This document shows positions 8,113 through 50,947 of a DNA stretch of 64,000 nt, piece by piece. How positions within the stretch are numbered: the stretch's first letter is position 1; each line of letters opens with the position of its first letter. Below the pieces are notes generated by a model, which ran no database searches, was not told the origin of the DNA, and saw only the letters and a list, made by a program, of their open reading frames with translations. The translations under genes were made by a program, and so were the position numbers. Source of the stretch: an uncultured cyanobacterium (lineage in GTDB: Bacteria; Cyanobacteriota; Cyanobacteriia; Cyanobacteriales; Cyanobacteriaceae); assembly GCA_963710605.1 (NCBI GenBank), contig CAVQBA010000006.1:96001-160000 (forward strand), given 5' to 3'.

Positions 8113-8164
8113 TAGTCAGATTGATATTATTGAGCTACAATATAGTTGGTTGTCGATCGACAAC
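8113..8164 (+). promoter_or_regulatory. Putative sigma70-type promoter with a downstream perfect 16-bp palindrome (candidate operator)
   Basis: TAGTCA-N17-TACAAT (8113-8141); GTTGTCGATCGACAAC at 8149-8164. Confidence 0.5.
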
Positions 8165-8184
8165 TCGTACTTTAACGGTATTTT

Positions 8185-8433: not shown

Positions 8434-8547
8434 AGTCACTTAAAACAGTATAAGTTCATTTGTCAAATAGAGTGGATTAATTTCCGCTCTTTTAATAAAA
8501 ATTATTTTCTTGATGTACAAATAAATTAAATTATCAAGATATCAATT

Positions 8548-9072: not shown

Positions 9073-9372
9073 TTTTTAATTGAAGCAATAGATTTATATT
9101 TACAATCTGATAAAAAGTATAATCTGTTAAGAAAGTATTTGAACAATTTATTCAAATAGTCAATTAATTTACTGTTCGTACAACCAATTTATTGGATGAC
9201 AGGATATTCAAAATCGAATAATTATCGAATCGTAAAAATAGGTGACTTTTATCAAATAATTTAGATAATTTTACCGTTCACCAACTTATTAACGATCGAA
9301 AAAAATCTTGTAAATCAATCAATCTTGTCAAATCTTGATACTAACATGAAAAAATAAAATAACAATACTAAC

Positions 9373-11885: not shown

Positions 11886-12227
11886 AAAACCTCCTATAAA
11901 AGCAACTTATTTATCTATCAATGTAAACTATTTCTTAAATATCTTCTGTAGATATTGATTTTTCTTAACGTCCGTCTAGCAATGAACAATGGACAATTGA
12001 CAATTGACAATTACCAATAAAATATAGTAAAAACACAATCGTGTTGAATATATAGCAGAAAACTTCTGTAGTTAGGACACAACTTAAAAGAGAAACGATG
12101 ATACTCGATCGGAATTTTATCTTTGTCCGCAAGTCCATTGCTATACCATCAATAAATACCGTAGGGGCTGAATACTATTCAACCCACATACAATTTGTAA
12201 ACTGTAGCAAAGAGACTTTAAACACAC

Positions 12228-12283
12228 ACTCCTTACTCCTTACTCCTTACTCCTTACTCCTTACTCCTTACTCATTACTCCTT
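12228..12283. repeat. Heptamer tandem repeat (ACTCCTT)x8, one unit ACTCATT; STRR-like
   Basis: Read directly; abuts the purB stop. Confidence 0.95.
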
Positions 12284-12284
12284 A

Positions 12285-13581: not shown

Positions 13582-13840
13582 GGCAACTTTTCTTCTTAAT
13601 CTTTCAAATACAACCTTTCTATCTTATCAGCACTTAGTCAGAAGAATTGAGAATTAAGGCAAAAGGATGAAGGAAGAGAAATAATTAAATTGCGACTTTT
13701 TTACTTTCAATTTTTAACTGTTCTCTAATCATCAATCGTTAATCACTATAATAGTTATAGCTCTAATGAGTTTGAATCTTACCTCAATCAACCATCTGTT
13801 TGATTATTAATTACTAATTACTAATTATTAATTAGCCCTC

Positions 13841-17764: not shown

Positions 17765-17998
17765 ATGAAAATAGCAACTATAGACATTAATCAAGCCTTG
17801 CCTCAGATACATAAATTATTAGAAAATGCTTCAAATGGAGAAGAAATTATTATTACTAAAAATAACCAACCAATGGTTAAAATAAGTTCGATCGAACTTA
17901 TCAATCAACGTCCATCTTTATTTGGTATTGATAAAAATATTATTGATATTACAGATGATTTTGATGAACCTTTAGAGGATTTTAATGATTATATATAA
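17765..17998 (+). CDS. Phd/YefM-family antitoxin
   Basis: LLENASNGEEIIITKNNQPMVKI...DDFDEPLEDF; stop/start overlap with the PIN gene. Confidence 0.88.
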   Translation: MKIATIDINQALPQIHKLLENASNGEEIIITKNNQPMVKISSIELINQRPSLFGIDKNIIDITDDFDEPLEDFNDYI

Positions 17999-18387
17999 TG
18001 AAGTTACTTTTAGATACTCACAGTTTAATTTGGTTTTTTAGTGGTAATTCCAAACTTAGTGAAACAGCAAGAATGTTAATGGAAGACATTAATCATCAAA
18101 AACTGATTAGCTTAGTTAGTGTTTGGGAAATGGCAATTAAACAAAGTAAAGGTAAATTAAGTTTATCTTTACCAGTGGAAGATTATATTAACCAAAAAGC
18201 TGAATTAGAAGATTATGAAATAATACCTATAAATCTAAACCATTTAGGTCTTGTTTCTACATTACCTTTCTATCACAACGATCCTTTTGATAGGCTGTTA
18301 ATCGCTCAATCAGTAGTAGAAAATATTCCTATCATAACTAAAGATAACGCTTTTTCTGCTTATAATATTCAAATAATTTGGAATTAA
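17998..18387 (+). CDS. VapC/PIN toxin
   Basis: MKLLLDTHSLIW, SVWEMAIK, HNDPFDRLLIAQ, ITKD. Confidence 0.93.
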   Translation: MKLLLDTHSLIWFFSGNSKLSETARMLMEDINHQKLISLVSVWEMAIKQSKGKLSLSLPVEDYINQKAELEDYEIIPINLNHLGLVSTLPFYHNDPFDRLLIAQSVVENIPIITKDNAFSAYNIQIIWN

Positions 18388-30923: not shown

Positions 30924-31073
30924 AAGAATTGAGATGAATTGCGAATTGAAGCAGTCATCGGGAATTGAGAATTGAGAATGGAGAATTGAAATTAATAATT
31001 GATAATTGACAATGAATGAATTCGGAAGTCAGAATTAGGAATTCGTAGTTAGGAAGGCAAGAGTGAATAATTA

Positions 31074-31199
31074 ACTCCTTACTCATTACTCATTACTCAT
31101 TACTCATTACTCATTACTCATTACTCATTACTCATTACTCATTACTCATTACTCATTACTCATTACTCATTACTCGTTACTCTTTACTCGTTACTCATT
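31074..31199. repeat. Heptamer tandem repeat (ACTCATT)x~18
   Basis: Read directly; immediately upstream of ldpA; degenerate GAGAATT-type repeats at ~30925-31060. Confidence 0.95.
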
Positions 31200-31217
31200 A
31201 CTTCTTACTTGTGTTTA

Positions 31218-32268
31218 ATGTCTGAATTTTCTTCTCCTCTTGATTCTTTAGTGCGGGGTAATTGGTTTAAATTGATTTGTGGTGCGAGTTATCAACATTT
31301 ACCTTCAATACGTAATTTGGCTTTAGTCTATACTTTAGCAGGTGCTGATTGTCTTGATTTAGCCGCCGATAAAGCTGTGGTTTATACTGCCTTAGAAGGA
31401 ATTAATGTCGCTGGCAAAATTTAGAGATAAAGCGATCGAGTTAGGGTATAATCCTCATCCTACTCCTTTACTTATGATAAGTATAAATGATGGAGAAGAT
31501 CCTCATTTTCGCAAAGCTAAGTTTAACCCGACTGAATGTTTAACTGATTGTCATCGCCCTTGTCAAACTATTTGCCCTGTAGATGCGATCGCTTTTCCTG
31601 CTCTTAATCAAGGAGTAATCGAAGAATTGTGTTACGGATGCGGACGATGTTTGCCTGTTTGCCCGATCGATATTATTGAAACCGAATCAAAAATCATTAG
31701 CGTTTCAGAAGTTTTACAATGGTTAGATATTTTACCGATAAGTGCGATCGAAATCCACACTCAGCAGGGACATTTCGATCGTTTTAAGCAGGTTTGGCAG
31801 ACTATTAAACCACAACTACCTAAACTGAAATTGATAGCCATCAGTTGCCCTTATACACCGACTGTGACTGAATATTTAACTCAAATTTATCAACATATTG
31901 ATTCTGATATTAAAGATGTTAACTTGATTTGGCAAACAGACGGACGACCAATGAGTGGTGATATTGGTAGCGGTACAACTCATCTTACAATTAAATACGC
32001 TCAACAAGTTAAACAGTTAAAGATGAAAGGGTTTATTCAATTAGCAGGGGGTACAAACGAATATACAGTATCGAAGTTACGTAGTTTGAATTTGCTCCCT
32101 TCAACGGTATCTGGTGTGGCTTATGGTAGTCAAGGCAGAAAAATAATTGCGGAAACTCTAACTCAATTAGAATCTATTTGTGAGCATAATCAATTAGAAA
32201 ATTATCCTGATTTACTTTGGCAGGCGGTAACACAAGCTAGACAATTGATTGCACCTTTAAAAGAATAG
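31218..32268 (+). CDS. ldpA: Circadian input protein LdpA (2x 4Fe-4S); apparent frameshift near 31420
   Basis: WFKLICGASYQHLP, NDGEDPHFRKA, CYGCGRCLPVCP, QTDGRPMSGDIG, QLAGGTN. Confidence 0.93.
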
Positions 32269-32493
32269 TGTCAACAATGTTGGGTTTCGCTTTTATTTAT
32301 GTATCGTTATATCTCTTGATGCTTTTGTAGCTCAACCCAACCTACAATAAATGCGATCGTACTGCGACGCTAATACACACAATAGTGAAAATTTAATTAG
32401 TAAAAACCTAATCATCAGTTATCATAGTTTCGTCTGGTATGATAACTCTATTTGCCGTGTATCGCTAGAAGAAGATACTCGATCGTTTATAGT

Positions 32494-32654
32494 TATAGTT
32501 ATTTAAAATAACAGTGAGACAATATTGAAGCTAAAATTAGAGTTTAATTTATTAAACGGTATCTGTTAGCCTTGTCAATTTATTGCAAGGCGAGTTTGGG
32601 ATTCATATTTTTACTCTTATTTATACTGTCTCAAACTTAATTAAAATGACTATA
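32494..32654. repeat. MITE-like element with imperfect TIRs
   Basis: tatagttatttaaaataacagtgagaca ... tgtctcaaacttaattaaaatgactata. Confidence 0.6.
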
Positions 32655-32726
32655 TCATAGTGTTCGGACACGATCGATTCCAACAAAAATAATTATTCAT
32701 TATTAATTATTAATTATTAATTACCA

Positions 32727-33794
32727 ATGGTGTTTACTGCTAAGTATCAAAAATATAGTTTAAAATTTAAACGTCCTAGTGGTACTTCTCGTGGCATAAT
32801 GACCACTAAAGATACTTATTTTGTTTTCCTTAAAGATAGTAATAATCCTAACAAAATTGCGATCGGTGAATGTGGTTTATTAAAAGGATTAAGTCACGAC
32901 GATCGACCTAACTATGAAACTAAACTACAACAAGTTTGTCAGCAAATCAAACAGATTAGATCACTAGAAGGAATCAATCGTTTGTGTTTGAGTTTGTTAG
33001 ATTACCCTTCGATTCGTTTTGGAGTAGAAATGGCGTTTCAAGATTTAGTAATGGGTAGCCAACGTATTTTTTACGATAATTATTTTACTCAAGGAAAACC
33101 AATCCCGATTAATGGTTTAATTTGGATGGGTGAAATTGAGTTTATGCGTCAGCAAATTATCAAGAAAATAGAAAGTGGTTTTAGTTGTTTAAAATTAAAA
33201 ATAGGGGCGATCGATTGGGAAACGGAGTTACAATTAATAGCAAGTATTCGTCAAGAATTTTCAGCCAATGACATTGAAATTAGAGTTGATGCTAATGGTG
33301 CTTTTTCTCCCTCCACTGCTTTAGAAAAGTTAGAGCTTTTAGCAAAGTACAATTTACATTCGATCGAACAACCGATTAAACAAAATCAATGGCAAGAGAT
33401 GGCTTTATTGTGCGATCGAACTCCTTTACCAATAGCCTTAGATGAAGAACTAATTGGCATCAACAATCCAGAAGAAAAAGATAAATTAGTAAACTTTATT
33501 TCACCGCAATACCTAATTTTTAAACCTAGTTTAATTGGTGGTTTTAAAGCTACTCAAGAATGGATAGATATAGCAAATGAAAAACAAATCCCTTGGTGGA
33601 TAACCTCAGCATTAGAAAGTAATATTGGATTAAATGCGATCGCTCAATTTACAGCTAATACCAACAATAAAATGCCACAAGGATTGGGTACGGGGCAGTT
33701 ATACACAAATAATATCGACTCTCCTTTAGAAGTAAAAGCAGGACATCTTTACTATCGCCCAAACCTAAAATGGAATTTATCTTCTTTACACTAG
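32727..33794 (+). CDS. menC: o-succinylbenzoate synthase (enolase superfamily)
   Basis: KLKIG, RVDANG, EQP, ALDEEL, TSALES, GLGTG. Confidence 0.88.
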   Translation: MVFTAKYQKYSLKFKRPSGTSRGIMTTKDTYFVFLKDSNNPNKIAIGECGLLKGLSHDDRPNYETKLQQVCQQIKQIRSLEGINRLCLSLLDYPSIRFGVEMAFQDLVMGSQRIFYDNYFTQGKPIPINGLIWMGEIEFMRQQIIKKIESGFSCLKLKIGAIDWETELQLIASIRQEFSANDIEIRVDANGAFSPSTALEKLELLAKYNLHSIEQPIKQNQWQEMALLCDRTPLPIALDEELIGINNPEEKDKLVNFISPQYLIFKPSLIGGFKATQEWIDIANEKQIPWWITSALESNIGLNAIAQFTANTNNKMPQGLGTGQLYTNNIDSPLEVKAGHLYYRPNLKWNLSSLH

Positions 33795-34097
33795 TGATGA
33801 TTAAGATTGATATAGATTAGTGATACATACCTAATTAATGTGACACATTTTTAAACAGAAATAGTTTATTTTCTGTCTGAATTTTGGGCATTCTAATAAC
33901 ATATCTCATTCTAGATAAATAGAAATATCAGATCGAGATAAAAAGCGATCTATGAAATCAGAAATTAACATGGTGTTAAAGAAAATATCACTAGTTAGTT
34001 ATCAAATGTAAGGAAACAACAAGTTATTTTGATGGTTTTATTTTTCTGGCAATGATTAGTATATGGATTACTAAAATTTTATAACTAGGATAAGTTC

Positions 34098-37000
34098 ATG
34101 ATAGAAAATACCAATAACAATGAGATTATTATCGAAATTTCAAAAAATCTTAAGAAAAAACAAATTGAGCTGATTAAAATAATGTCAGAAGATAAAATCA
34201 AAATAGATTCAAGTATTTCGATTTTATCTGAGTCTCCAAAAGAATTGATTAAAAATTCAACAAAAAATGTAAAAACTAGAATTATTAATTTACTTTACAA
34301 ACTGGAAAAACAAGAAATAGTCAAATCAGAAAATAATATATTTAGCTTAACTGAGTTAGGTCAAAATATTGCTGAATATTTAGAGAAAAATCAAATTCTG
34401 AATAAAGAAAAAAGAAGCTCTTCCCGTCAACTTCAAAAACAAGAAGTTCAAAAAAAAAGGAATGAATTTCTTGAACTATATAAACAAGGCTTGAGTTATC
34501 AAGATATAGGTAATAAACATCAAATTTCTAGAGAAAGAGTTAGACAAATCTTAATAGACAATCCTACTTTTCATGAATATAGAGAAGAACAAGAATTAGC
34601 TAAAATTCAAGCCCAAGAAGAAAAAGAAAAACAAGCTGAAGAAAATTTTTACGAACGAAGTATTGCTTTTCTTTATCCAGAAAAAGTCGATCTGCTCTGG
34701 GATTATGAAAAAAATGGAAATCTTCAACCTGATGAAGTTATCGCAGGAAGTGTAAGTCAATACATATGGCTCAAATGTCCTCTCGATCGATATTCTTGGA
34801 AAAAAAAACCTAACGATATTACAACTAGTTGGTCAAGATATGGAACAAGTGGTTGTCCCAAATGTGCTGGTAAAACAAAAAAAATACAACAAAGACCAAA
34901 ATTAAAAGATGCTTATCCTGATTTTGTCCAGCAATATTGGGATTATGAAAAGAATGATGAATTAAATATTTATCCAGAAAAAGTTAAAACTGGTAGTAAC
35001 AAAAAAGCATGGTTTAAATGTTCTGTTGATGGCAATGAATGGGAAAGGATAATTCATTCAATGGTGGCTCAAAATTGGTCAAAAGGTAATGGTGGTTGTA
35101 GTGTTTGTAATGGTACTCAGGATAGAAAAAAAAGTAAGTGGACAAGAGCTAATCCTGTGGCAGTAGATTTTTCTGAAGAAGTGGCTAAATATTGGCTTTA
35201 TGAAAAAAATAATGAATTAAAGCTCAATCCTAATAAATTAACAACTGGTTCTAAGAAAAAAGCATGGTTCAAGTGTCCTCTCGATCAACATGAATGGGAG
35301 GCATCTATTACAGCTATTGCTAAAACTTCTTGGAAAAAAGGTAATAGTGGTTGTCCTGCTTGTAGAGGATGGATTGCGGCTGAAACTACTTCCTTAATTG
35401 CTCTTTATCCCGAATACATACAACAATATTGGGATTATGAAAAAAATGATTGATTAGGTTTGTATCCAGATCGATTAACAAAAGGTACTAATAAAGAAGC
35501 ATGGTTTAAATGTTCTATAGATGATTACGAATGGAAAGCTCGAATTTATTCAATTATTAAAGGTTCATGGAGTGTCGGAAATAGTGGTTGTGTTAGATGT
35601 AGCAATCGTTGGACAATTGAAGCAATCCGTCAATTTGTAGCTAGTTTAAAAGAACATATTCCTAACTTAACACCAGCAGAACGTTATAGAATATTTGAAC
35701 AATCAGGTATTTTAAATACTCAAAATAAAGAAGGTCTTACAATTGTAAAAGATATTATTAAAGGTAAATTATCGGGAGCTAAATTAGGCGGATTTCTCAG
35801 AGGGGAAGAAACAAAAGAAGATAACTTAGAAAATAGTTTTGATAATAATCTAAATGCTGATGAAGAATTACAAACCGTTGATGATGATCCTTCTCATCTT
35901 TCCAAACATACTTTTCATAAAGATACTGAAAATGCGGAAGAAGAAACTATAGAAAATGAAGATTTACCAAAAATTCATGTACAAAAAAGCCTAGAATTTC
36001 TTAATAGTAAAGTAGTTGCATCTTCAGATCGAGAAGCAGTTGATTTCTTTATTGCTTCCCGAAAAAATCGCATTTGGGCAGAAGTTTTTGAAGATGAGTC
36101 CGCAGTCGAAGGTTTAGAAGAATTTACCGATGAAGGTTATGGCTATCAAGTAAGAGATCAATTTCTTGATGAATATTATCAAGCAAAAAATATGCAAACT
36201 CCTCAAGGTTGGGGTTTTAAAATCAATGGGAAAATAACACCTCCTAACTTAATGCAGAAAGTCTCTGCGGTGCGATTAAATAATGCCAAAAGAATGCTCA
36301 ATTTATCTTTAACTGGAACAGGTAAAACCATTGGTGGAATTTTAAGTAGTCGTATTATTGATGCTAATTTAACTATTATTATTTGTCCTTTTGATACTGT
36401 TAGTAATTGGCATAGTGAAATCAAAAAAGTTTTCCCCGATAGTAAAGTTACAACTAAAAATTTTAGTCCTTATTGGGAAACTATAAAAAATGGACATCAT
36501 TATATGATTTTTAACCATGAAATGTTCCAACAACCCAATACAGCAAGTCGTATTCGTCAACTATTAGAAAAATATCAAATTGATTTAATCATTGTTGATG
36601 AAATTCACAAATGTAAACAAAGAAGTCAAAATCCTTCTAAACGCCGTCAAATGATTATGGGATTAATCACCAATGCCAATGAAATTAATCCTAATCTTCA
36701 TGTTTTAGGGATGAGTGCCACACCAATTATTAATAATCTCAAAGAAGGCAAAAGTTTAGTTGAATTAGTCTCAGGAATAGAAAGAAGTGATTTAGGAGAA
36801 AAAGCCACAACTAATAATTGTATGAAGTTACATCAGGCTTTTGTAACTTTAGGCATTCGCTCAAGGGTAAAACCTAAAATTAAAATTGATAGAATCCAAA
36901 TTCCTATTGATATTTCACATTTAGTTGATGAAATTAGAGAGGAAGGAAAATCTGTTCTCAAAATGGAGCAAATTTTAACCCGTGCTAAAATACCGACTAT

Positions 37001-38171
37001 TTTAGAGCAAATACGACCTAAAACTATTATTTATACTCATTATGTAGAAAGTATAGTTTCTCAATTAAAAGAAGCAATTGAAACTGAAGGTTGGACAGTT
37101 GGCTTTCATTTAGGAGGCAATAAAAGCGGTTATGATGGTTTCGTTAATGGTTCAACGGATATTTTAATTGCTAGTAGTGCAATGGCTGTAGGGGTTGATG
37201 GTTTTCAGAAAGTTTGTAGTCGTTTAATTTTAAATATTCCACCTTGGACAAGTGCCGAATTAGAGCAATTAGAAGGGCGTTTAAATCGCCAAGGACAAAC
37301 ATCTAATATTTTAACAATTGTTATGCCTGTGACTTATGGTCACGATAAAGAAGAATATTGGAGCTGGGATGAAGGAAGATTGGCACGATTAGAGAATAAA
37401 CAAACTATAGCTGATGCGGCGGTTGATGGTATTATTCCTGAAGGGCAATTAAGAACTCAATCTCAAGCTTTTCGTGATTTGAGAAAATGGCTAGAAAGAC
37501 TTAAAACAGGAAAACAAAAATCAATTATCAGACCTAAAATATTTGTACCTTTACCTGAAGACAATCCGAGTGATGTTAAACGTCGTTATGCTCGTTATGG
37601 TGATTTTAGCAAGATGAATGCTCGTTGGAATACAAGTTATAGTCATACACTTTACCAACGTTTACAAGAAAATCCTGAAGAATGGATGCAATATCATACA
37701 CTTTACCAAGAAGCCAGAAAAACATGGAATCTTATTCCTTACAAAGAAACGATTAAATGGCTCGAACAACGTTCAGATTTAATAGTAGGAGACTTTGGTT
37801 GTGGAGAAGCTTTTATCGCTAAAGAATTAGCAGATAAACATACAATTCATAGCTTTGATTTCATTGCAATTAATGATTCTGTAACAGAATGTGATCTGAA
37901 AAATGTACCATTAGAGGATAATTGTCTGGATATAGCAATCTTTAATCTATCTTTAATGGGTTTAAATTACGAGCAATATATTATTGAAGCCTCCAGAACT
38001 TTAAAGTTAGATGGGCAACTTTGGATTTACGAAGCAATATCGAGAATCAAAGATATAAATAATTTTATTCAAAAAATTCAATTTTTTGGTTTTAGTATTA
38101 TCAAAAATATCGAAACTAACAAATTCATACATATTTGGGCAATTAAGTCAGAGTTTAAAAATTACAGTTAA
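34098..38171 (+). CDS. Multidomain protein: HTH (sigma r4-like), 4 DUF4379-type Zn-ribbons, SF2 helicase, RRP8/Methyltransf_8-like SAM methyltransferase; one reading frame with an in-frame TGA at 35451-35453
   Basis: LSYQDIGNKHQISRERVRQI; four WxYEKN..P..G..WxKC..W..GCxxC repeats; TGTGKT, DEIH, MSATP, QLEGRLNRQGQ; DFGCGEA..HSFDF..VPLED..IFNLSLMG..EASRTL; ORFs 34098 and 35460 share a frame. Confidence 0.85.
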
Positions 38172-38213
38172 AACAAACTTTTTCTTTTACTAAATAAATC
38201 ACGATCGTTAATT

Positions 38214-38783
38214 TGGGAAATTGAGTTACAATTAATACCTAGTATCCGTCAAGAATTTTCAGCCAATGAAATTGAAATTAGAGTCGATGCTAATGGTGCT
38301 TTTTCTCCCTCCACTGCTTTAGAAAAGTTAGAGCTTTTAGCAAAGTACAATTTACATTCGATCGAACAACCGATTAAACAAAATCAATGGCAAGAGATGG
38401 CTTTATTGTGTAGTAAAACTCCTTTACCGATAGCATTAGACGAAGAACTAATCAGCATCAACAATCCAGAAGAAAAAGATAAATTAGTAAACTTTATTTC
38501 ACCGCAATACCTAATTTTTAAACCTAGTTTAATAGGTGGTTTTAAGGCTACTCAAGAATGGATAGATATAGCAAATCAAAAACAAATCCCTTGGTGGATA
38601 ACCTCAGCCTTAGAAAGTAATATAGGACTAAATGCGATCGCTCAATTTACAGCTAATACCAACAATAAAATGCCACAAGGATTGGGTACGGGGCAGTTAT
38701 ACACAAATAATATCGACTCTCCTTTAGAAGTAAAAGCAGGACATCTTTACTATCGTCAACAACTTCAGTGGGATTTATCTTAA
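38214..38783 (+). pseudogene. menC: 5'-truncated duplicate of the menC 3' half (33216-~33783)
   Basis: Near-identical nucleotide blocks at offset 4998; lacks the N-terminus and the catalytic KxK. Confidence 0.93.
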
Positions 38784-38801
38784 TTATCGATCGATAATTA
38801 A

Positions 38802-39008
38802 GAATTTAATAATAATTCACAAAAAACTAGTAAAACAATGCAAATAGAATTAGAAAGATTTCGCTTAGAGTATCAAACTGCATTACAAAAATTTTCGGCA
38901 ATAGCAAATATTTGTGACAAACTGAATCAAACTTCGATCGGTTTATACGAAACTTCAAAATATCTAATAACTACAGCTAACGAGTTAAAAGATAGTAACG
39001 ATCGATAA
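38802..39008 (+). pseudogene. C-terminal coiled-coil remnant of a putative ZorA-like gene
   Basis: EFNNNSQKTSKTMQIELERFRLEYQTALQKF...ANELKDSNDR*, directly upstream of the MotB/OmpA gene; assignment rests on position. Confidence 0.4.
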
Positions 39009-39052
39009 TAGTTGAAATTAAGCTAATTTTTATTTTATTTAAGGGAGACAAA

Positions 39053-39718
39053 ATGACAGGTTTTTTTGATTATGAAACTGAAGAAGAATTATTAGAAGAG
39101 GAAGATTCTGGTGTATGGCTTTCTGTAGGAGACTTAATGTCAGGATTGTTGATGTTTTTTGCTTTGTTATTTATTGCGGTATCCGCTCAACTGGTTGAAT
39201 ATGACAACATTATCAAAAAAATTCCCTTAGCTATTGTTGAAGCGACTAAAAATATTGAGGGAGTAAAAGATAGTATTAAACTTGAACCTAATGGCGATTT
39301 GAGCTTAGATGATAAAATTCTTTTTGATGAAGGGCAAGCTACTTTAAAACCTGAAGGAAAAAACTTTTTGACTAACTTTATTCCTGTATATACTGAAACT
39401 ATTTTTAGTGACGAAATGTTTGACCAGCAAGTATCAAGAATTATTATAGAAGGTCATACTAGCTCAAATGGTTCAGAAAAGCAAAATATGGAGTTAAGTT
39501 TTCAACGGGCATTAGCGGTGAGTGAATATATTAAAACGATCGATTTTCCTTATCAAAATCAATTAAAACAAAAATTGTTAGCCGCAGGCAGAGGAGAAAC
39601 TGATTCTAATCAAACTTTTGACGATTCTAAAGACAGAAAAGTGATGTTACGTTTTCAATTTAAAAGACAGGAGTTAACAAATGTATTCCCAAATCAAACC
39701 AATAATTTAAATCCGTAA
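39053..39718 (+). CDS. MotB/OmpA-family protein, ZorB-like
   Basis: WLSVGDLMSGLLMFF TM helix with conserved Asp; IIIEGHTS, NMELSFQRA, AAGRGE, DRKV. Confidence 0.8.
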   Translation: MTGFFDYETEEELLEEEDSGVWLSVGDLMSGLLMFFALLFIAVSAQLVEYDNIIKKIPLAIVEATKNIEGVKDSIKLEPNGDLSLDDKILFDEGQATLKPEGKNFLTNFIPVYTETIFSDEMFDQQVSRIIIEGHTSSNGSEKQNMELSFQRALAVSEYIKTIDFPYQNQLKQKLLAAGRGETDSNQTFDDSKDRKVMLRFQFKRQELTNVFPNQTNNLNP

Positions 39719-39733
39719 AAGATTAAATTAACG

Positions 39734-39841
39734 ATGAATTTTTTTAAGTCAAAAATAAATTTACCTGATTTACCACCACCAAAATCGATCGAGTTATTAA
39801 AATTAACCCAAGGCATTAAAGGGTTACTCATCAATGACTAA
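39734..39841 (+). pseudogene. 35-aa N-terminal remnant, possibly of a ZorC/EH-signature-like gene
   Basis: MNFFKSKINLPDLPPPKSIELLKLTQGI, 15 nt after the ZorB-like stop and cut off by repeat elements. Confidence 0.3.
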
Positions 39842-39869
39842 AGTCATTACTACCAACTTTAATTTAAAC

Positions 39870-39976
39870 TATAGCTTTTTTCATGTTTACGAGGTACAAC
39901 GGAAAATCGGAAGTCCCCTTTATAAGGGGGATTTAGGGGGCTTTCTTTATATTTCACAAGACTAATAATTGCTATA
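39870..39976. repeat. Dispersed inverted-repeat element (same family as 6643-6755)
   Basis: tatagc...gctata, gaggtaca, cccctttataagggggatttaggggg. Confidence 0.7.
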
Positions 39977-39993
39977 TTTAGCTATTACTTTAG

Positions 39994-41526
39994 TTATTCC
40001 GCAAAAGTTTCTACATTACCACTAGGAGAAAGAATCAATCTGATAGTAAGAGGAGACACTTGTGTAAAACCTGAAGTAATTATCTCACCAATCAACGGCA
40101 TTGGTGTTTGATCAATAAATATCGAGGCAATTTGTCCGACAGGTGTTATTCTACTTAAACTACCATCACCGTTTAATACAAGGCGATATTCGATGCTTTG
40201 TGTGAGATTCTCAGGCGGTTGCCATTTGCTTTGAAAATAGGTTTCAACTTCAGTAGAAACATTATTACTAATCTGCTTGGCTATCACTATCGGGCTGTTA
40301 TCTGTGCTTAATTGTTGTCTTAGTTTTACACTCGGCTTGATTTGTTGATTATTTGTGGTTGGTAAATTAGGTAAGTTATTACTAGAATCAAGGCTTGGTT
40401 TTGGATTTGCCGCTGATAAAACAGGTACGGTAGAAGGAGGATTAGTTTTAGTATTAAGTGGTTTTGATGGTGGTTGTTTATTCTCAATAACTTGATCTTG
40501 TTTGATTGTTGGAGGAGAATTAAAAGACGGTTTTATTGCCATAATCACCGATGGGTTAACTTTTTTATCGGTTGAATTTGACGGCAAATTGAATACTTTT
40601 TGTGAAGGAAAAGGTTTTGTTTTTGAGGATGAAGAAGTTGTTTTTGAGGATGGTGTGGGTAAAACACTAGTAATGCTCAAGTTATTTTGCTTTGATGAAT
40701 TGTTATCTTCATTAGGAATAACTAAATCAATTGACGATGGTGTAATATTTGGTGGTGGTAATAATGATTGTTGACGAATTGCTTGTGGCGAAATTTTAGC
40801 TAGATTTGTCTGAGCGGGTATTTTAGGTACAATTGTTTGAGGTATATTTTTAGCATCTAATGGTTGAGGTGGCACAACTGCTTGAACATTCGTGTCATAT
40901 TTGTCAGCAGGTAAATTTTCATCATCAGTTTCTTGGGCTATATCGCTAGCTAAATTTTGCTGATAACGCCACCATCCTAGCCCTCCTGCGGTTGTAATTA
41001 TCGCTATTAGAGCAATCCAAGCACTAGCCGATAACGATCGTTTTTTCTTTTTGATATTTACATTAGTCGCATCCCAATGATAAGTATCTAAAGCATTGAC
41101 AAAATCGACTAGTTGTGTATTATTTAAAACGACTTCGATCGTTTCTGGATGAGGTTCAAAAGATTGATAATAGAGAAGATGGCTATAAGCACTCAATCGG
41201 CTTAAATGAACAATTTTACCTTCTGCTGATAATGGTATTTCGCAAGCGAGTTTTTCTGGTTGCTCCCAAATAGATGTACAGTTAAGATATTCTTGTACAT
41301 ATTTAGTTAATGTTTTTCTAAGTGTTTCAAGCAAATCTCGATCGCCAATTACGGTAATTTTATCTTCTTGTGTTAACCGAGGATCATCAAAATGTAACTG
41401 GAAACTAAATAAAGGAGGAAAATGTTGCGATCGCCATCTACCCCAAAACGGTTGTGGATGATATATTTCTAATGTACAAGTAGGAGGGGTATAACGCCTA
41501 AAAGAATTAAATTTGTGAATTACCAT
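39994..41526 (-). CDS. DUF4335-domain membrane protein
   Basis: RRYTPPTCTLEI, TM helix, Pro-rich linker, WQPPENLTQSIEYRL. Confidence 0.8.
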   Translation of the reverse strand: MVIHKFNSFRRYTPPTCTLEIYHPQPFWGRWRSQHFPPLFSFQLHFDDPRLTQEDKITVIGDRDLLETLRKTLTKYVQEYLNCTSIWEQPEKLACEIPLSAEGKIVHLSRLSAYSHLLYYQSFEPHPETIEVVLNNTQLVDFVNALDTYHWDATNVNIKKKKRSLSASAWIALIAIITTAGGLGWWRYQQNLASDIAQETDDENLPADKYDTNVQAVVPPQPLDAKNIPQTIVPKIPAQTNLAKISPQAIRQQSLLPPPNITPSSIDLVIPNEDNNSSKQNNLSITSVLPTPSSKTTSSSSKTKPFPSQKVFNLPSNSTDKKVNPSVIMAIKPSFNSPPTIKQDQVIENKQPPSKPLNTKTNPPSTVPVLSAANPKPSLDSSNNLPNLPTTNNQQIKPSVKLRQQLSTDNSPIVIAKQISNNVSTEVETYFQSKWQPPENLTQSIEYRLVLNGDGSLSRITPVGQIASIFIDQTPMPLIGEIITSGFTQVSPLTIRLILSPSGNVETFAE

Positions 41527-45039: not shown

Positions 45040-45480
45040 ATGAGTGATATCGAACAACAAAGAAAGGAAGCCCAAGACGAAACAACTCCACCAAAACAAT
45101 TACAAGAGTTATCGGTGTCACCTGATTCTCTAACTCGTCAATATGTAGCTCAAAATCCCAATACACCGACACAAACTCTTCTAAATTCAAGCGATGAATT
45201 TCCTCAACAAGTCTTAAATAACGATGTTATTCCTTTACTTTTAATTGAAACTCCTCAGCTTTTTTCTTGTCCATTTCGTTTCGATTTGGTACACGTAATT
45301 CGTGTTACCAGTCGGTTGATGAAATGTTTAGGATGGACAGTCGAAGACGGAAAACTGTATTTAATGCAAACCTATGGCCAAAAATCTCGAAATTTACTTT
45401 CTGATGAGCAGTTATTAGAATTTATGAGGATGCTTCAAAATCTCAAAGATAGTCAACAAAATAATAATACCTGTTCGTAG
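45040..45480 (+). CDS. LRV (leucine-rich variant) repeat protein with an unrelated C-terminal domain
   Basis: EAQDETTPPKQLQEL, VAQNPNTP; C-terminal LGWTVEDGKLYLMQTYGQKSRNLLSDEQLLEF. Confidence 0.75.
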   Translation: MSDIEQQRKEAQDETTPPKQLQELSVSPDSLTRQYVAQNPNTPTQTLLNSSDEFPQQVLNNDVIPLLLIETPQLFSCPFRFDLVHVIRVTSRLMKCLGWTVEDGKLYLMQTYGQKSRNLLSDEQLLEFMRMLQNLKDSQQNNNTCS

Positions 45481-45620
45481 TAACTCCTTAGTCATTGTCT
45501 TCGTTAAAAAAGAAAGCCTAAAGGCTTAACTACAAACTTTCTTGTAAAAGTTTAGATGTTGCATAAAATATTATTTAGCTCAGGAAGAATAATTAAAGTT
45601 AATAAAAAAATAGAAGATTA

Positions 45621-47351
45621 ATGAACGATATCGAACAGGTAAAAAAACTAATTACACAGCCAAAACTAAGTCTTTTTTCTGAACAATTACGAGAAATTGC
45701 TCAAAACCCTAATACTTCTGCTGAGATATTTACTCTATTAGTTGAAGAATTTAATAAAACAAATAGTTTATTTTATCAAGAAATTACGAAGTCGATCGCT
45801 CTCAATCCTAATATACCTAGCGAACTTCTTGAAAAACTACTGATGTATCATTCCGTTGAGGTATTGAATAACCCGACTATTTTGAGGAGATTAAAAGAGC
45901 AACCCAATTTACTTTATTTGCTCGAAACAAATTATTCTAGGGTTAAAACTCTAATTGAATATAATTATGATGTACCTAACTGGTTTCTAGAAAGATTAAC
46001 TAATTTAAAAAACTTTACCGTTAAAAAAGAATTCGATCGAGAAATTACTACTATAGCCCAACAAATATTAGAGGCAAAAAACGAAAGTACACCACCAGCA
46101 AAATTGGTAGAATTAGGTGAAAAATCAACTTTTAGTATTCGTCGATTTGTTGCTCTCAATCCTAACACACTTGTCGATACTTTGATTGAAGTAGCTTATG
46201 CTTTTCCTAAAGAAGTATTAAATAATCCTGTTTTTGATTTATTAATTTTAGAGGATGCAGATTTCATTAAAAGAATACCGCCCGAGACTTTTATCGAATT
46301 ACTTTGTCAAGAAGAAATGACATCTAGTTTTCTTGCTTTAGCGATTGAACATCCTGAAGATAGAGTAAAATCTCATATAGCAATAGATCCTGCAACATCA
46401 CCTAAAACATTACAAAGATTATTAGAAAACATCTTAGCAGGAAAAGGTTCGCTTTCATTATCTAGGTCAATTGCTAATAATCCGAATATATCCACTGAAA
46501 CATTACAATTGTTAACCGATCGAAGTAAAGATGTAACTTTGGCTAAACATACAATTTATTGTTCTAAGATTAAAATTCCTACTGAAACGATCGAACAATT
46601 GATTGAAAATGGGGATGAAAAATTACTTGAAGCGATCGCACTTAATCCTAATACTCCAACACATATAATAGAAAATTTATGTTCTTCTTATATAAATAAA
46701 AGCTATACAAATAAAAATTACAAAATTATTTATGCAATTTCTCAAAACCCGAAGACAAATAGTCAAATTTTAGAATCGATAACTAATAAATATATTTCAG
46801 ATAATAACCCGCATTTAGTTAGAGATTTATTACTGAATATTGCTAGTCATGATAATGCTTCTTCACAAACTCTTGAAAGGTTAGCAGATTATCCCGATGA
46901 GTGGGCAACTGAAGCTGTTGCGGTAAATTCTAATGTTTCTGAAAAAACGATCGAGAAAATACTAATAAAAGTTGTTAATTCATTATTTGCTCAAAAATCT
47001 CAAGAAGAAAAACTAGCTTTATTGGTTTTAGCATTTGATGAATTGCAAAAAGCAAAAAATACTCAAACATCTATCTCTTTATTGGAACAATATACTAAAC
47101 ATCGCTGGCGTGCAATTCGTTTGGCAGTTGCTAAAAATCCGAGTACGCCTGATTCTATACTTCAACAACTGGCTAACGATGGATATCCTAAGGTTGCTGA
47201 ATGGGTTGCCAAACATCCGAATTGTTCTAGCTACACTTTAGACATTCTCAATCAATACCCTGCAACTTACATACACCAGATAGCCTTAAAACATCCTAAC
47301 ATCTCAAGACTAACCAAACAAAGATCTTACAGTGGAAAATCATATACATAA
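45621..47351 (+). CDS. LRV/HEAT-repeat protein
   Basis: Many (I/V)AxNPNT repeats. Confidence 0.85.
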   Translation: MNDIEQVKKLITQPKLSLFSEQLREIAQNPNTSAEIFTLLVEEFNKTNSLFYQEITKSIALNPNIPSELLEKLLMYHSVEVLNNPTILRRLKEQPNLLYLLETNYSRVKTLIEYNYDVPNWFLERLTNLKNFTVKKEFDREITTIAQQILEAKNESTPPAKLVELGEKSTFSIRRFVALNPNTLVDTLIEVAYAFPKEVLNNPVFDLLILEDADFIKRIPPETFIELLCQEEMTSSFLALAIEHPEDRVKSHIAIDPATSPKTLQRLLENILAGKGSLSLSRSIANNPNISTETLQLLTDRSKDVTLAKHTIYCSKIKIPTETIEQLIENGDEKLLEAIALNPNTPTHIIENLCSSYINKSYTNKNYKIIYAISQNPKTNSQILESITNKYISDNNPHLVRDLLLNIASHDNASSQTLERLADYPDEWATEAVAVNSNVSEKTIEKILIKVVNSLFAQKSQEEKLALLVLAFDELQKAKNTQTSISLLEQYTKHRWRAIRLAVAKNPSTPDSILQQLANDGYPKVAEWVAKHPNCSSYTLDILNQYPATYIHQIALKHPNISRLTKQRSYSGKSYT

Positions 47352-47372
47352 ATCAAATTAGACATAAAAGTA

Positions 47373-49409
47373 ATGAATATCGAACAACAAATAAAAGAAG
47401 CTCAAGACGAAACAACGCCACCAGAAAGATTACGAGAGTTAGCAGTTTCCTCTAATTATCTTGTTCTTGAAAGTATAGTCAAAAATCCTAATATACCACC
47501 TGACGTTATACAAAATTTGGCTGGGCAGTTTCCTCAACAAGTTTTTGAGAATCCTGCTTTAGAATTATTATTATTAGAAACTCCCGATTTACTTTTTAAA
47601 ATAAACTCTTACTCTCTCCAAACAATAGCCCAAACAACTACTTGTGTTAAAACTCTAGCGATATTAGCTAGAAATGAAGATGACAGAGTTCGTGGGTATG
47701 TAGCACGAAACCCAAAGATAACGATCGAAATTTTAGAAAAATTGGCTCTCGATACAGGTACGAATATCAGACAAGCAGTAGCAATAAACCCTCGTACTTC
47801 GGTTAAATTATTACAACAATTAGCTTTCGATGCAGATTTTCATGTCAGAGAAGCTGTAGCACAAAACCCTCATATTTCAATTGAATTATTACAACAACTA
47901 GCTCTCGATTCTAGCGGTTGGGTAAAAGGTTATGTTGTCAGCAATCCTAAAATTCCAATTGAATTATTACAACAACTAGCTTTTGATACTAATGCCGATG
48001 TCAGACAAGTAGTAGTATATAACCCCAAGGCAACACCCAAAATTTTAGAAAAATTGGCTCTTGATACAGATGCGGGTGTCAGACAAAGAGTCGCACAAAA
48101 TCCTCAGACAACAACTGAAATCTTAGAAAAATTAGCTCTTGATTGGAATTATAAAGTCAGACAAATAGTTGCACGAAACCCTCAGATAACGCCTGAAATA
48201 TCCAAAAAATTGGCTCTCGATGGGAATCATAAAGTAAGAAAAGCAATAGCACGAAATCCTTATATTTCAATTAAAATCTTACAACAAATAGCTCTTAAAC
48301 CTTTGCAAGACTCAACAATACCAGTAAAAGTAGCGATTAATTTTCAGACCTCAACTGATATATTAGAACTACTAGCTAGGTATTACAGTCAACGTGTAAG
48401 ACAAATGGTAGCAAGAAATCTTAAGACACCAATAAAAACCTTACAACAACTAGCTCTCGATTCGGATTGTGTAATAAGAAAAGAGGTGGCTTTCAATCCT
48501 CATACTCCAAGTAAAACCTTAATAAAATTGGCTCGTGATTCTGAGGCGAAAATTAGAGAAATCATTGCTCTGAATCCTAATACTTCAACTGAAATCTTAA
48601 AAAAATTGGCTCGTGATTCTGAGAAACAAATAAGGGAAATCGTCGCACTTAATTCTAATATCACGATCGATATTTTACAACAATTAGCTCGTGATTCTGA
48701 ACATACAGTCAAAGTTGCTGTAGCGTTACATTCAAAAACAACGATCGATACTTTACAACAATTAGCAGATGATTTGCATTATAGAGTAAGAGTAGCGGTG
48801 GCTAGAAATTCTAATACCACAACCCAAATATTGGAACAATTAGCAGATGATTATCACGAGCGAGTAAGAATGGCTGTTGTTAAAAATTCTAATACAGCGA
48901 TCGAAATATTAGAAAAATTAGCTAATGATTCTGATAGTGGAGTAAGAATTGCTATTACCCGAAATCTTAATAAGCCGATAGCTTTCGATTCTGATTATGA
49001 GGTAAAATATACACTTACAAAAAATACTTTGACCACAAGTCAAATGTTACAACAAGCGGCTAAACATAGTAGCTATGAAGTGAGGATTGAAATTGCTAAA
49101 AATCCAAACGTCACGCTAAAAATATTAAAACAACTAATCTCAGAACAATTAGCTGAAGATCGTTATGGTAAAGTTAAAACGCAAGTGGCACAACATCCGC
49201 TCACAACAGTAGAAATGTTAGAAACATTAGCAAATGATTATCATAGCGGAGTAAGAAAAGCTGTCGCCAGAAATCCTAACACACCGATCGAAATATTACA
49301 AGCATTATCTGGGGATGAAATTGCTTATGTAAGTAAACACGCTGAAGCTAATTTCTTTCGATTAATTATGATTAAGAAAAATGTTTGTTCGTCTAATACT
49401 ATAAGTTGA
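47373..49409 (+). CDS. LRV/HEAT-repeat protein with regular ~24-aa repeats
   Basis: LxQLAxDxxxxVRxxVAxNP repeated about 20 times. Confidence 0.88.
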   Translation: MNIEQQIKEAQDETTPPERLRELAVSSNYLVLESIVKNPNIPPDVIQNLAGQFPQQVFENPALELLLLETPDLLFKINSYSLQTIAQTTTCVKTLAILARNEDDRVRGYVARNPKITIEILEKLALDTGTNIRQAVAINPRTSVKLLQQLAFDADFHVREAVAQNPHISIELLQQLALDSSGWVKGYVVSNPKIPIELLQQLAFDTNADVRQVVVYNPKATPKILEKLALDTDAGVRQRVAQNPQTTTEILEKLALDWNYKVRQIVARNPQITPEISKKLALDGNHKVRKAIARNPYISIKILQQIALKPLQDSTIPVKVAINFQTSTDILELLARYYSQRVRQMVARNLKTPIKTLQQLALDSDCVIRKEVAFNPHTPSKTLIKLARDSEAKIREIIALNPNTSTEILKKLARDSEKQIREIVALNSNITIDILQQLARDSEHTVKVAVALHSKTTIDTLQQLADDLHYRVRVAVARNSNTTTQILEQLADDYHERVRMAVVKNSNTAIEILEKLANDSDSGVRIAITRNLNKPIAFDSDYEVKYTLTKNTLTTSQMLQQAAKHSSYEVRIEIAKNPNVTLKILKQLISEQLAEDRYGKVKTQVAQHPLTTVEMLETLANDYHSGVRKAVARNPNTPIEILQALSGDEIAYVSKHAEANFFRLIMIKKNVCSSNTIS

Positions 49410-49567
49410 AGCTACTTTTGATTGATTTTATTTTATGTCGGTTTTGTCATTAAAAATAAGGCATAAATATTTATAACTATAGTCGATCGATCGTATGACT
49501 TAACTTTTAAATTGTAAGTTAGACTGACTCGATCGATCACAATTAAAAAATTTGTCGGCAACATCTA

Positions 49568-49613
49568 CTTCAATATTGCATAAATTCTAGTTTGCGTCGG
49601 GAAGAATAATTAA
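49568..49613 (+). promoter_or_regulatory. Repeated leader motif, identical copy
   Basis: 46/46 identical to 44970-45015. Confidence 0.8.
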
Positions 49614-49636
49614 AGTCGATCGAAAACTGAAAATTA

Positions 49637-50947
49637 ATGATAAATATCGAACAACAAAGAAACGAAGCACAAAATGAAAGCATATCACCACAAAGATTAC
49701 GAGAGTTAGCAGTCTCAGAAGACTTTCTTACCCTTGAACATATAGTTAAAAATCCTAATGTACCACCTGATGTATTACAAAATTTAGCCGGACAATTTTC
49801 CGAACAGACTTTTAAGAATCCTGCGATCGATTTATTGTTACTAGCAAACCCTGATTTACTCTCTGGAATTAGCTCTGACTCTCTTGAAACAATCGCTCAA
49901 ACAACGGCTTCAACTAATATTCTGGCTGTATTAGCAAGAAATCAGCATTGGAGAGTTCGTTGGGGAGTAGCAAAAAATCCAGAGACGACAATAGAAATCT
50001 TAAAACAATTAGCTCAAGATTTTAATCCTTATTCAAGACAAGAAGTAGCAAAAAATCCAAAAATTGATGAAGAAATAATTACAAAAATTCTTTTTTACAA
50101 ACATTCTATTGAAGAACTTAACGCTACTCATACGAAAGGAAAACGACCTATTACACTAACTATAGATGATAAAGAATATCTAATTGAACCATGTGCCAGT
50201 TTACATCTAGATGATAATCCTCTGGGTAATGTTGCTAGTAATCCTAATTTATCTTTAGATATTATTGAGCAGTTAGTGTCAAACATACTTAAAATATTAG
50301 AATGGGCATGGGGTATAAATTTTGTTACAGGTATTGTTTCAAATCCAAATATTCGTGTTTCTACATTAAGATGGTTATCAGGAGAAGAATATTTAAAAAT
50401 TCACAATGATGCTGTATTTGAATATCATATAAATAGTCTTGCATCTTATAAAGCTAACTGCGATCCTTTTCTGAAAAAAAAATCATATCAAGAAATTGTT
50501 AGTTATCTAAAAAAAGATTGGAGCGTACAAGAAGGTGCTAGTAATTCTGCGATGAGATTAATTGGTCAATTATACTGGGCAATTGTACAAAATCCAACCA
50601 CTCCCGAAGATTTAAAATCTGATTTATTACTTAAATTAACCAGCGATAAGATAATCGTTTCAGAAGTTCGTTATCACATTGCTAAATCTTTGGATGTACC
50701 AGTAGAAATCCTTAGAAGATTAGCAAAAGTCGATCCTCATCCTCATAAAGCATTGGCGGAAAATCCTCATACTCCTAGTGATGTTTTAGGACAACTAGCA
50801 AATCATAAAGATAGTGATATGCGTAAAAAAGTGGTACAACATCCTAGTACCTTACCTGAAACCTTAGAAAAATTGTCTGAAGACGAAGATGAACAAGTTA
50901 GTAAAGCGGCAAAAGCTAATATTTCCAGATTAAAACTTGCAAACTAG
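49637..50947 (+). CDS. LRV/HEAT-repeat protein
   Basis: First ~125 aa paralogous to 47373..49409; NP-type repeats; unique central region. Confidence 0.85.
   Translation: MINIEQQRNEAQNESISPQRLRELAVSEDFLTLEHIVKNPNVPPDVLQNLAGQFSEQTFKNPAIDLLLLANPDLLSGISSDSLETIAQTTASTNILAVLARNQHWRVRWGVAKNPETTIEILKQLAQDFNPYSRQEVAKNPKIDEEIITKILFYKHSIEELNATHTKGKRPITLTIDDKEYLIEPCASLHLDDNPLGNVASNPNLSLDIIEQLVSNILKILEWAWGINFVTGIVSNPNIRVSTLRWLSGEEYLKIHNDAVFEYHINSLASYKANCDPFLKKKSYQEIVSYLKKDWSVQEGASNSAMRLIGQLYWAIVQNPTTPEDLKSDLLLKLTSDKIIVSEVRYHIAKSLDVPVEILRRLAKVDPHPHKALAENPHTPSDVLGQLANHKDSDMRKKVVQHPSTLPETLEKLSEDEDEQVSKAAKANISRLKLAN

Follow-up and report, generated by a model that had tools for sequence, protein, structure and literature searches.

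How does a single gene that couples a DNA-binding array, an Snf2-type ATPase and an RRP8-type methyltransferase come to lie directly behind the menC gene of a cyanobacterium, and what might its product do there? The question is raised by a stretch of 64,000 nucleotides (the window) from an uncultured member of the Cyanobacteriaceae (GenBank assembly GCA_963710605.1, contig CAVQBA010000006.1, positions 96,001 to 160,000), in which the gene, here called the motor-methylase gene, occupies positions 34098-38171 of the forward strand. A sequence-only reading had taken it for a putative anti-phage gene in an inserted segment. Our analysis indicates that it is most likely the single cargo of a horizontally acquired cassette of about 5 kb that recombined into the 3' end of menC. 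As to function, we tentatively regard the protein, mainly by analogy, as a DNA-directed conflict protein of mobile elements, a reading that we hold at somewhat less than an even chance.

The cassette at the 3' end of menC

The menC-like gene (o-succinylbenzoate synthase/enolase superfamily; 355 aa, 32727-33794, + strand) is intact, and its product matches the MR_MLE_C profile with E 2.5e-28. Its 3' part, 33215-33794 (+), is the left copy of a direct repeat of about 575-580 bp that was recovered by repeat search, alignment and blastn. The right copy, at 38213-38785 (+), is a displaced 3' fragment of menC in which a 128-aa open reading frame (ORF) is left at 38397-38783 (MR_MLE_C, E 9.5e-8). The copies are 93-95% identical (93.4% over 592 nt by blastn) at a spacing of 4998 bp, and between them lie only a 303-bp spacer from the menC stop to the cassette ORF (33795-34097), the motor-methylase gene and 41 bp, which makes this gene the only ORF of an insert of about 5 kb. 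Rfam found no match in the spacer, and no group I or II intron or other known RNA anywhere in 31000-41000 (E<=0.1); in a promoter and terminator scan, the counts of promoter-like sites in the spacer were no higher than in shuffles; and no integrase or recombinase was present among the window ORFs scanned.

A genome of the same genus, G401, carries an intact menC orthologue (73% amino-acid and 77% DNA identity) with no insert after it. We used it at those positions where the two menC copies differ and G401 matches one of them. Up to position 33626, G401 matches the left copy at 13 such sites and the right copy at 6, and from 33630 to the menC stop it matches the right copy at 7 and the left at 1 (Fisher p 0.013). 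The intact menC gene would appear to be a hybrid, native up to a crossover near 33630-33757 and donor-derived over its last ~40-165 nt, while the downstream fragment reads as foreign first and native at its end. Such a switch of native sites between the copies is intelligible, as it would result if a donor with a gene end followed by the cassette had taken part in a single crossover or had served as template in repair copying; the cassette would have recombined into the 3' end of menC, brought its own copy of the gene end and left the displaced native end downstream. The flanking repeat, the empty site in G401 and the site pattern together bear out the inserted segment that had been suspected from the sequence.

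Domain architecture and the in-frame stop

Translation of 34098-38171 (+) yields 1357 codons and a terminal stop, with a single internal stop, a TGA at codon 452 (35451-35453, +) that falls within the fourth zinc-ribbon unit. The frame and all motifs quoted in the sequence-only reading were recovered (TGTGKT at residue 739, DEIH at 834, SAT at 873, QLEGRLNR at 1057, DFGCGEA at 1232 and LSLMG at 1284), and Pfam agrees with the series of domains it had listed, namely a helix-turn-helix (HTH), four zinc ribbons, an SF2 ATPase and an RRP8-like methyltransferase. It was also right that the N6-type (DPPY/NPPY) and C5-type motifs of DNA methylases are missing; a scan for [DNS]PP[YFWH] found no occurrence anywhere in the 1357-codon frame.

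The N-terminal piece (451 aa, 34098-35453, +) comprises a winged HTH (wHTH, residues ~1-85), a second HTH (residues 128-152), three full DUF4379 ribbons and the start of a fourth, and ends at the TGA. Both HTH units rest on the AF2 model, fold search and Pfam; the model of the 451 residues (m8d8ba9c4d531, pLDDT 84.6) contains a winged helix, a second HTH and zinc-ribbon repeats. The wHTH fold has weak matches to MarR/PadR-type regulators among solved structures, and a Sigma70_r4 match in Pfam is borderline (24.0 bits against a cutoff of 24.1). The four tandem treble-clef units of the DUF4379 family (PF14311) lie on the + strand at 34674-34865, 34911-35108, 35166-35363 and 35406-35600 and score 113.6 bits over three stretches in the N part and 29.1 bits for the fourth repeat, which spans the stop. 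They are visible as direct repeats in the DNA itself, at 34673, 34913, 35168 and 35405, and the pattern W[FL]KC...GCxxC occurs four times in the protein. The nearest solved folds of this array are kinetoplastid mitoribosomal proteins, which match weakly (E 2e-6 to 8e-4). In the close clade the N part is 52% identical, compared with 71% for the catalytic part, and the N-terminal repeats of phage relatives match PHROG families (phrog_559, phrog_681) whose annotation is that of HNH or other endonucleases. On one 501-kb IMG/VR contig (L045, 600-7540), more than 25 tandem repeats of ~63-65 aa, of the INT_rpt or 'FEEAR.F...LNLKS..EW' type, extend over several ORFs that immediately precede a short version (879 aa) of the motor-methylase gene.

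The C-terminal 905 codons (35454-38171, +) encode the end of the fourth ribbon, a linker of helices that includes an acidic, disordered segment, the ATPase and the methyltransferase, and were modelled by AF2 (m29f2061fe148) with pLDDT 82.4 and pTM 0.72. The two-lobe ATPase (C-part residues ~265-660, 36246-37433, +) has a Q motif, the Walker A sequence GTGKT, DEIH, SAT and motif VI, and scores 40.3 bits for ResIII, 34.9 for DEAD, 31.6 for SNF2-rel_dom (cutoff 24.9) and 23.2 for Helicase_C (cutoff 23.5) in Pfam. With regard to membership of the Snf2 group, motifs Q, I, II (DExH), III and VI are present and invariant and the SNF2-related profile scores above its cutoff; all residues of the motor and of the S-adenosylmethionine (SAM) site that are invariant in a 71-sequence family alignment are kept in the window protein. 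The top Foldseek matches in the Protein Data Bank (PDB) are Mot1, Chd1, CSB, BAF/PBAF, INO80 and ISWI (E 1e-17 to 1e-14), and the best viral matches, in BFVD, are phage SNF2 helicases. Among PHROGs, the motor matches phrog_62 ('DNA helicase', E 3e-31) and, weakly, phrog_11801, a large 'DNA methyltransferase'.

On these structural models, the 'helicase' is best described as a predicted Snf2-type translocase of double-stranded DNA (dsDNA) and, judging from its family, would move along dsDNA without strand separation. The SF2 motifs of the earlier reading are confirmed by Pfam, whereas a strand-separating helicase is not, given that the Foldseek and BFVD matches are Snf2 translocases; the idea that unwinding exposes the N1 of adenine is therefore weakened. 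Neither Pfam nor PHROGs nor fold search revealed a nuclease fold or profile in the whole protein.

The methyltransferase (C-part residues 716-896, 37599-38141, +) is an RRP8-type class I SAM enzyme with motif I DFGCGEA and an LSLMG loop. It scores 151.4 bits for Methyltransf_8 (PF05148; cutoff 27, E 4.4e-44), its only sequence match in the PDB is 2ZFU, human RRP8/nucleomethylin (E 1.3e-32), and Foldseek aligns the AlphaFold model with 2zfu_A at TMt 0.86, an rmsd of 1.8 A and 34% identity; G782, G784 and D802 are invariant across the 71 family sequences. The assignment of this domain to RRP8, already proposed from its motifs, is thereby upheld. RRP8 is a stand-alone eukaryotic nucleolar methyltransferase of large-subunit rRNA, and the chemistry of its family is ring-nitrogen methylation of adenine (N1).

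Is the copy in the present genome alive? Reading of the TGA as tryptophan, or any other recoding, was ruled out, as the homologous column holds K, E, A or Q and never W in 60 of 60 close homologues. The stop may be genuine, through genome erosion, or an assembly error. Three housekeeping genes of the window are likewise split into neighbouring or overlapping frames (uvrA-like, 23-1766; purB, encoding adenylosuccinate lyase, 12288-13581; a sugar nucleotidyltransferase, 10805-11885), which points either to erosion or to assembly frameshift errors in a source assembly that is 84.9% complete in 7 contigs. There is not far from an even chance that the copy is a relic, a selfish or once-useful cassette gene killed by a nonsense mutation and without current function. 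An in-frame TGA where homologues carry ordinary residues fits this explanation, as do the further split genes, the incomplete genome and the visible decay of many relatives. It is harder to reconcile with a sole lesion in 4 kb, with the intact invariant catalytic residues of the C-terminal 905 aa, or with a TTG, a possible restart, at 35460, two codons past the TGA; moreover, natural members of ~880-920 aa begin near the same point (for example P0249, 902 aa, aligned over 5-900), and the stop could come from the assembly. The present copy is either decaying or expressed as two pieces.

The family and the recurrence of the layout

A word-indexed search, in which 8000 candidates were scored at a cut-off of E<=0.001, returned at least 1066 relatives. 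Over the C-terminal 905 aa, the best 120 of these 1066 show 69-74% identity; they are mostly ~1340-1350 aa long and come from Leptolyngbya, Microcoleus, Phormidium (on a plasmid), Trichocoleus, Nodosilinea and Acidobacteria; they are named in databases only as 'DEAD/DEAH box helicase family protein' or 'zinc-ribbon domain-containing protein'. Cyanobacterial and acidobacterial copies share about 70-73% identity. When 50%-identity representatives were searched exhaustively with HMMER, 3980 clusters reached E<=1e-3, of which 589 also reached E<=1e-30. The helicase plus Methyltransf_8 core was found in all 37 representatives scanned, with variable N-termini: 17 have DUF4379 (one to seven copies), 4 have DUF723, 3 have INT_rpt and 1 has HHH_6. 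Short proteins of ~214-270 aa consist of the methyltransferase only, some of them on long contigs, and bear the NCBI name 'RRP8 family class I SAM-dependent methyltransferase'. Scans of metagenome and genome contigs with exact peptide patterns, which are narrow, yielded only 8 and 7 loci. Of 401 genomes sampled from the phylum, 11 were found to carry the methylase domain, as were 29 of 401 from the order (the present genome is counted in both) and none of 19 from the same taxonomic family.

Decay is frequent among the relatives. Internal stops interrupt the copies in G156, G188 and G336, truncated frames are found in G440, G424 and G459, and the closest relative (genome G673, 74-76% identity) has multiple frameshifts and an insertion of ~900 bp. 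This pseudogene occupies 6384-10990 of locus L125, and the insertion lies between C-part residues ~512 and ~509-547. Plasmid-borne relatives occur in Crinalium and in Rhodococcus, in the latter beside FtsK/SpoIIIE, SSB and RES genes, and 10 phage-like IMG/VR contigs hold relatives amid RNA and DNA ligases, QueC, DNA methylases, tRNA genes and homing endonucleases. The family is large and unnamed, and moves between bacteria, plasmids and phages.

The arrangement at menC has counterparts elsewhere. In Acidobacteria, the motor-methylase gene follows carB (L005, L007, L008) or hutU (L006, L009), and past the cassette the final 100-200 nt of carB or hutU reappear at four of the five, L009 being the one without the repeat; in L005, as in the window, the cassette between the repeats holds the motor-methylase gene only. 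On the phage-like contig L038, the order is an intact QueC gene, a gene for a GIY-YIG endonuclease, a small ORF, the motor-methylase gene and a diverged copy of the 3' half of QueC. Of the 44 loci with sufficient flanking sequence, 10 have the gene between direct repeats, or 8 of 42 without two duplicate records, with a different geometry in two of the direct-repeat loci (L027 and L035); inverted repeats bracket it in none of the 44. To judge from these alignments, the layout of gene, cassette and 3' remnant recurs, as a minority state, at four target genes, menC, carB, hutU and QueC.

Two acidobacterial loci are more elaborate. In L007, a contig of a metagenome-assembled genome (8506-18885), the 3' end of carB is left in four to five remnants (71-92% identity), which part successive small cassettes that hold the motor-methylase gene; a 133-aa ORF with a PtuB-like HNH gene; a Uma2/PDC-S17 nuclease; and a 239-aa ORF. 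This array looks like a homing or integration hotspot, and no recombinase was present among the ORFs scanned at the locus. In L009 (14227-19086), downstream of the motor-methylase gene, four copies of one gene-end-like sequence (60-82 nt, with a stop codon at its end) part PIN, AF2212-like and Uma2 cassettes.

Tandem carB remnants, together with a duplicated and partly foreign 3' end, are what repeated site-specific integration would leave, and phage e14 and phage 21, which integrate in icd, do bring a substitute 3' end. The gene could accordingly be cargo of a classical integrase-driven island whose recombinase has since been lost, an origin that we consider improbable: no integrase or recombinase domain was found in the window or, among the ORFs scanned, in the roughly 10 kb around the acidobacterial copies (L005-L009), only the motor-methylase gene stands between the repeats in the window and in L005, and four target genes would require four integrase specificities. 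Nor did a constant partner gene emerge from the loci scanned, in which small flanking ORFs are homologous only among near relatives (L007 with L008; L039 with L043).

Endonuclease genes do adjoin some members. HNH, GIY-YIG or EndoVII-like genes stand next to relatives in L007, L008, L011, L038, L041, L043 and L045, unlike the window copy, beside which no HNH, GIY-YIG or EndoVII gene was found. Several genes on the phage-like contigs are split: in L047, an ATPase gene (phrog_2376; 970-3390) by an endonuclease gene, and a nuclease gene (phrog_13933; 4823-11027) by a 132-aa ORF and the motor-methylase gene, with abutting pieces (profile 41-538 and 541-675); in L039, an RNA ligase gene (phrog_548; 11793-13802) by a homing endonuclease gene. 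Rfam detected no intron at the split genes of L047 and L039, and only tRNAs in the five phage loci to which it was applied.

Possible roles and comparison with known systems

What might the protein do? The family architecture of a variable N-terminal DNA-binding array, an Snf2-type ATPase and an RRP8-type SAM methyltransferase suggests that the array could dock the protein on duplex DNA, that the motor would then translocate along the duplex or remodel it with ATP, and that the methyltransferase would modify bases on the tracked nucleic acid, the target being, by analogy with RRP8, a ring nitrogen such as N1 of adenine. Overall, the protein would act as a 'methylase-translocase dyad' like DarB of phage P1, with a methylase of another family, in conflicts between mobile elements and hosts. 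Some relatives lie in phage-like contigs and on plasmids, and a mobile-element or counter-defence role is therefore at least as likely as host defence. Within this conflict reading, we slightly prefer protection of the carrier DNA from nucleases, a possible though doubtful role, and regard host anti-phage defence as unlikely.

Several observations weigh against this reading and the cassette history on which it builds. Most loci (34 of 44) are without a flanking duplication, the carB and hutU cases in Acidobacteria may each represent one inherited event, and in the loci scanned no nuclease, integrase or constant partner gene accounts for the mobility. The phage evidence consists of uncultivated IMG/VR contigs at 32-38% identity, and tblastn of 50,697 curated phage genomes gave no match at E<=1e-5. 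The gene is interrupted in the present genome. The likeness to DarB dyads is one of architecture only, because the methylase is without the DPPY-type motif. Finally, the substrate may be RNA, as RRP8 is an rRNA methyltransferase and the zinc-ribbon folds come nearest to mitoribosomal RNA-bound proteins.

This last point can be developed into an explanation of its own, in which the protein would work on ribosomes, with an ATPase that remodels RNA and a methyltransferase directed at N1 of adenine in rRNA or tRNA, possibly in translation takeover by large phages, in resistance to antibiotics or toxins or in ribosome biogenesis. Besides the RRP8-like methylase, whose only PDB relative is 2ZFU, and the mitoribosomal matches of the ribbon array, the gene content of the phage contigs with relatives is in keeping with it, as they encode tRNAs, tRNA nucleotidyltransferase, RNA ligases, a translation initiation factor and RF-1-like proteins. 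We nevertheless think it rather unlikely, given that the closest structures of the motor are all Snf2-family dsDNA translocases, that a wHTH and a sigma-70 region-4-like HTH are typical DNA binders, and that the N-terminal repeats of phage relatives are those of DNA-binding HNH homing endonucleases; the patchy distribution and frequent decay also speak against a housekeeping role.

The defence reading, which goes back to the sequence-only proposal and which we judge unlikely but a little less so than action on RNA, would have the array recognise foreign nucleic acid, the motor load onto it and the methylase add a mark of the m1A/m3C type that blocks base pairing, so that phage replication or host translation stalls in an abortive infection. 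An accessory, patchy and horizontally moving single gene is what such a system might look like, and Snf2-like ATPases are frequent in defence systems. Among 125 neighbours within 6 kb of 14 loci, at least one PADLOC match (E<=1e-8) was found at nine loci; these include PtuB-like HNH, Uma2/PDC-S17, GajB-like UvrD, PbeC and PD-DExK proteins, and some are of a generic kind (kinase, ABC ATPase). Some copies also have HEPN_AbiU2, Mrr or toxin-antitoxin genes beside them. Association with defence islands is only suggestive: the count is without a background control, several matches are generic, and the remaining five loci have no match and housekeeping genes around them, as do most cyanobacterial loci in the immediate surroundings. 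The presence of relatives within phage-like genomes and on plasmids also argues against defence, as does the motor, since an Snf2 motor does not part strands and would not alone expose adenine N1 (fold matches; Iyer et al. 2017, PMC5512222).

In the window itself, the nearest defence-like gene is a solitary ZorB/MotB-like gene of the OmpA family at 39053-39718 (+), which scores 231 bits (E 3e-69) with the PADLOC ZorB1 model PDLC00609, matches Pfam OmpA, reaches 42 bits with NCBIfam ZorB1 (cutoff 400) and probably lies outside the cassette unit. The Zorya-like remnants reported beside the motor-methylase gene are real to the extent of this one gene, with ZorA, ZorC and ZorD absent from the 40 window ORFs scanned. 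A PARIS-like pair (3457-5461; AriA 87.6 bits, AriB 119 bits) and a candidate PDC-M06A/B pair (8185-9069; 112 and 175 bits) lie 25-30 kb upstream of the motor-methylase gene, beyond housekeeping genes; like the ZorB-like gene, they could be counted in favour of defence.

Some other features of the window are recorded here for completeness. Toxin-antitoxin genes (ParE, HigB/HigA and Phd/PIN, at 1794-2072, 6002-6580 and 17765-18384) surround the PARIS-like and PDC-M06 pairs. About 25 tandem copies of a 7-nt unit (ACTCATT/TTACTCA) at 31046-31237 lie just upstream of an ldpA-like gene (31405-32268). Four paralogous genes at 45040-50947 have a common N-terminal 'IEQQ.KEAQ.E..PP..L.ELA' sequence, and three of them contain long arrays of LRV/HEAT-type repeats.

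How does the motor-methylase gene compare with systems that already have a name? PADLOC returned only weak helicase matches over partial regions of the protein (32-35 bits; best DrmD at 35 bits, with BrxHII and ZacC also weak), which have some weight for a defence role, and it contains no model that covers the family, which has weight against it. Literature searches, judged from titles and abstract openings, turned up no description of the architecture, and supplementary family tables may hold it; within these bounds, the statement that no characterised system has such an architecture is sustained. Membership of Zorya was rejected, the ZorB-like gene being the only Zorya-type gene in the window. 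DISARM, which pairs the Snf2-like helicase DrmD with a DrmMI or DrmMII methylase, resembles the window protein weakly in the C-lobe of the motor, by the PADLOC match and by NCBIfam DrmD at 39.9 bits against a cutoff of 610; the window unit is, in contrast, a single gene without DrmA, DrmB, DrmC or methylase partners, and assignment to DISARM or BREX was rejected on that score and on the absence of partner genes in the window. Restriction-modification systems of Types ISP and III also unite an SF2 ATPase, a methyltransferase and a DNA-recognition module in one machine, but with N6-adenine methylases and a nuclease domain or subunit; the window protein has neither, and membership was rejected.

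The preferred reading, that of a conflict protein of mobile elements, leans on a closer parallel. According to Iyer et al. (2017, PMC5512222), dyads of a SWI2/SNF2 ATPase and an adenine methylase are known from phages, plasmids and conjugative transposons, with DarB, which shields P1 DNA against type I restriction, as the archetype. Compared with the dyads described there, the window protein likewise joins an Snf2-type motor and a methyltransferase in one polypeptide on mobile DNA; it differs in that its methylase is of the RRP8 type without a DPPY-type motif, in the order of motor then methylase, in the homing-endonuclease-like N-terminal repeats of its family and in its setting as a solitary chromosomal cassette. 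The Snf2-methylase fusion is present and relatives occur on plasmids and phage-like contigs, with the window copy itself in a chromosomal cassette; strict membership of the DarB type was rejected, as there is no Pfam match to an N6 methylase and no (D/N/S)PP(Y/F/W) motif. With RRP8/nucleomethylin itself, the domain shares 34-40% identity to the human protein, motif I DFGCG(D/E) and the LSLMG(T)N loop, and it differs in its fusion with DNA-binding arrays and an Snf2 motor and in its occurrence in bacteria, plasmids and phages. The new element may be an RRP8-type methylase within a methylase-motor dyad that works like, and is perhaps a variant of, the known dyads of mobile elements. If the family methylates DNA through this domain, it would represent new chemistry among the methylase-motor machines of mobile elements and hosts, and would place a 'eukaryotic' rRNA methyltransferase family within prokaryotic conflict systems. 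The motor-methylase family itself amounts to hundreds of 50%-identity clusters under generic database names.

For the cassette, the closest parallel is provided by the mORF elements of fungal mitochondria, in which, according to Beaudet et al. (2013, PMC3630166) and Zubaer et al. (2018, PMC6279837), the core of a host gene is followed by a foreign C-terminal end, the mORF and the displaced native C-terminal fragment, and mobility is due to an endonuclease of the LAGLIDADG or GIY-YIG type encoded by the mORF. The layout at menC is identical, with a 3'-end insertion, a foreign substitute end, a displaced native end and an empty site in G401; it differs in its bacterial or phage setting and in a cassette ORF that Pfam, PHROGs and fold comparison do not recognise as a homing endonuclease. 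A nuclease-free homing gene, whose protein would itself bring about the transfer of the gene to the 3' ends of conserved genes, is conceivable but very unlikely. In such a mechanism, the homing-endonuclease-type array would find the target, the motor and a Watson-Crick-face (m1A-type) methylation of DNA would make a lesion without a cut, the lesion would block replication or provoke repair, and recombinational repair would copy the cassette and its substitute gene end into the naive allele; if true, homing would have a further and new mechanism, and the protein would be the first enzyme to write an m1A-type mark in DNA. To return to the cassette, its layout shows that insertion with a 'substitute gene end', known from fungal mitochondrial homing elements, operates in bacterial chromosomes and phages too, and its nuclease-free cargo raises the question of how such cassettes move. 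On sequence comparison, the cassette seems to work like a mORF homing element that carries, in place of the defining endonuclease, a methylase-motor protein.

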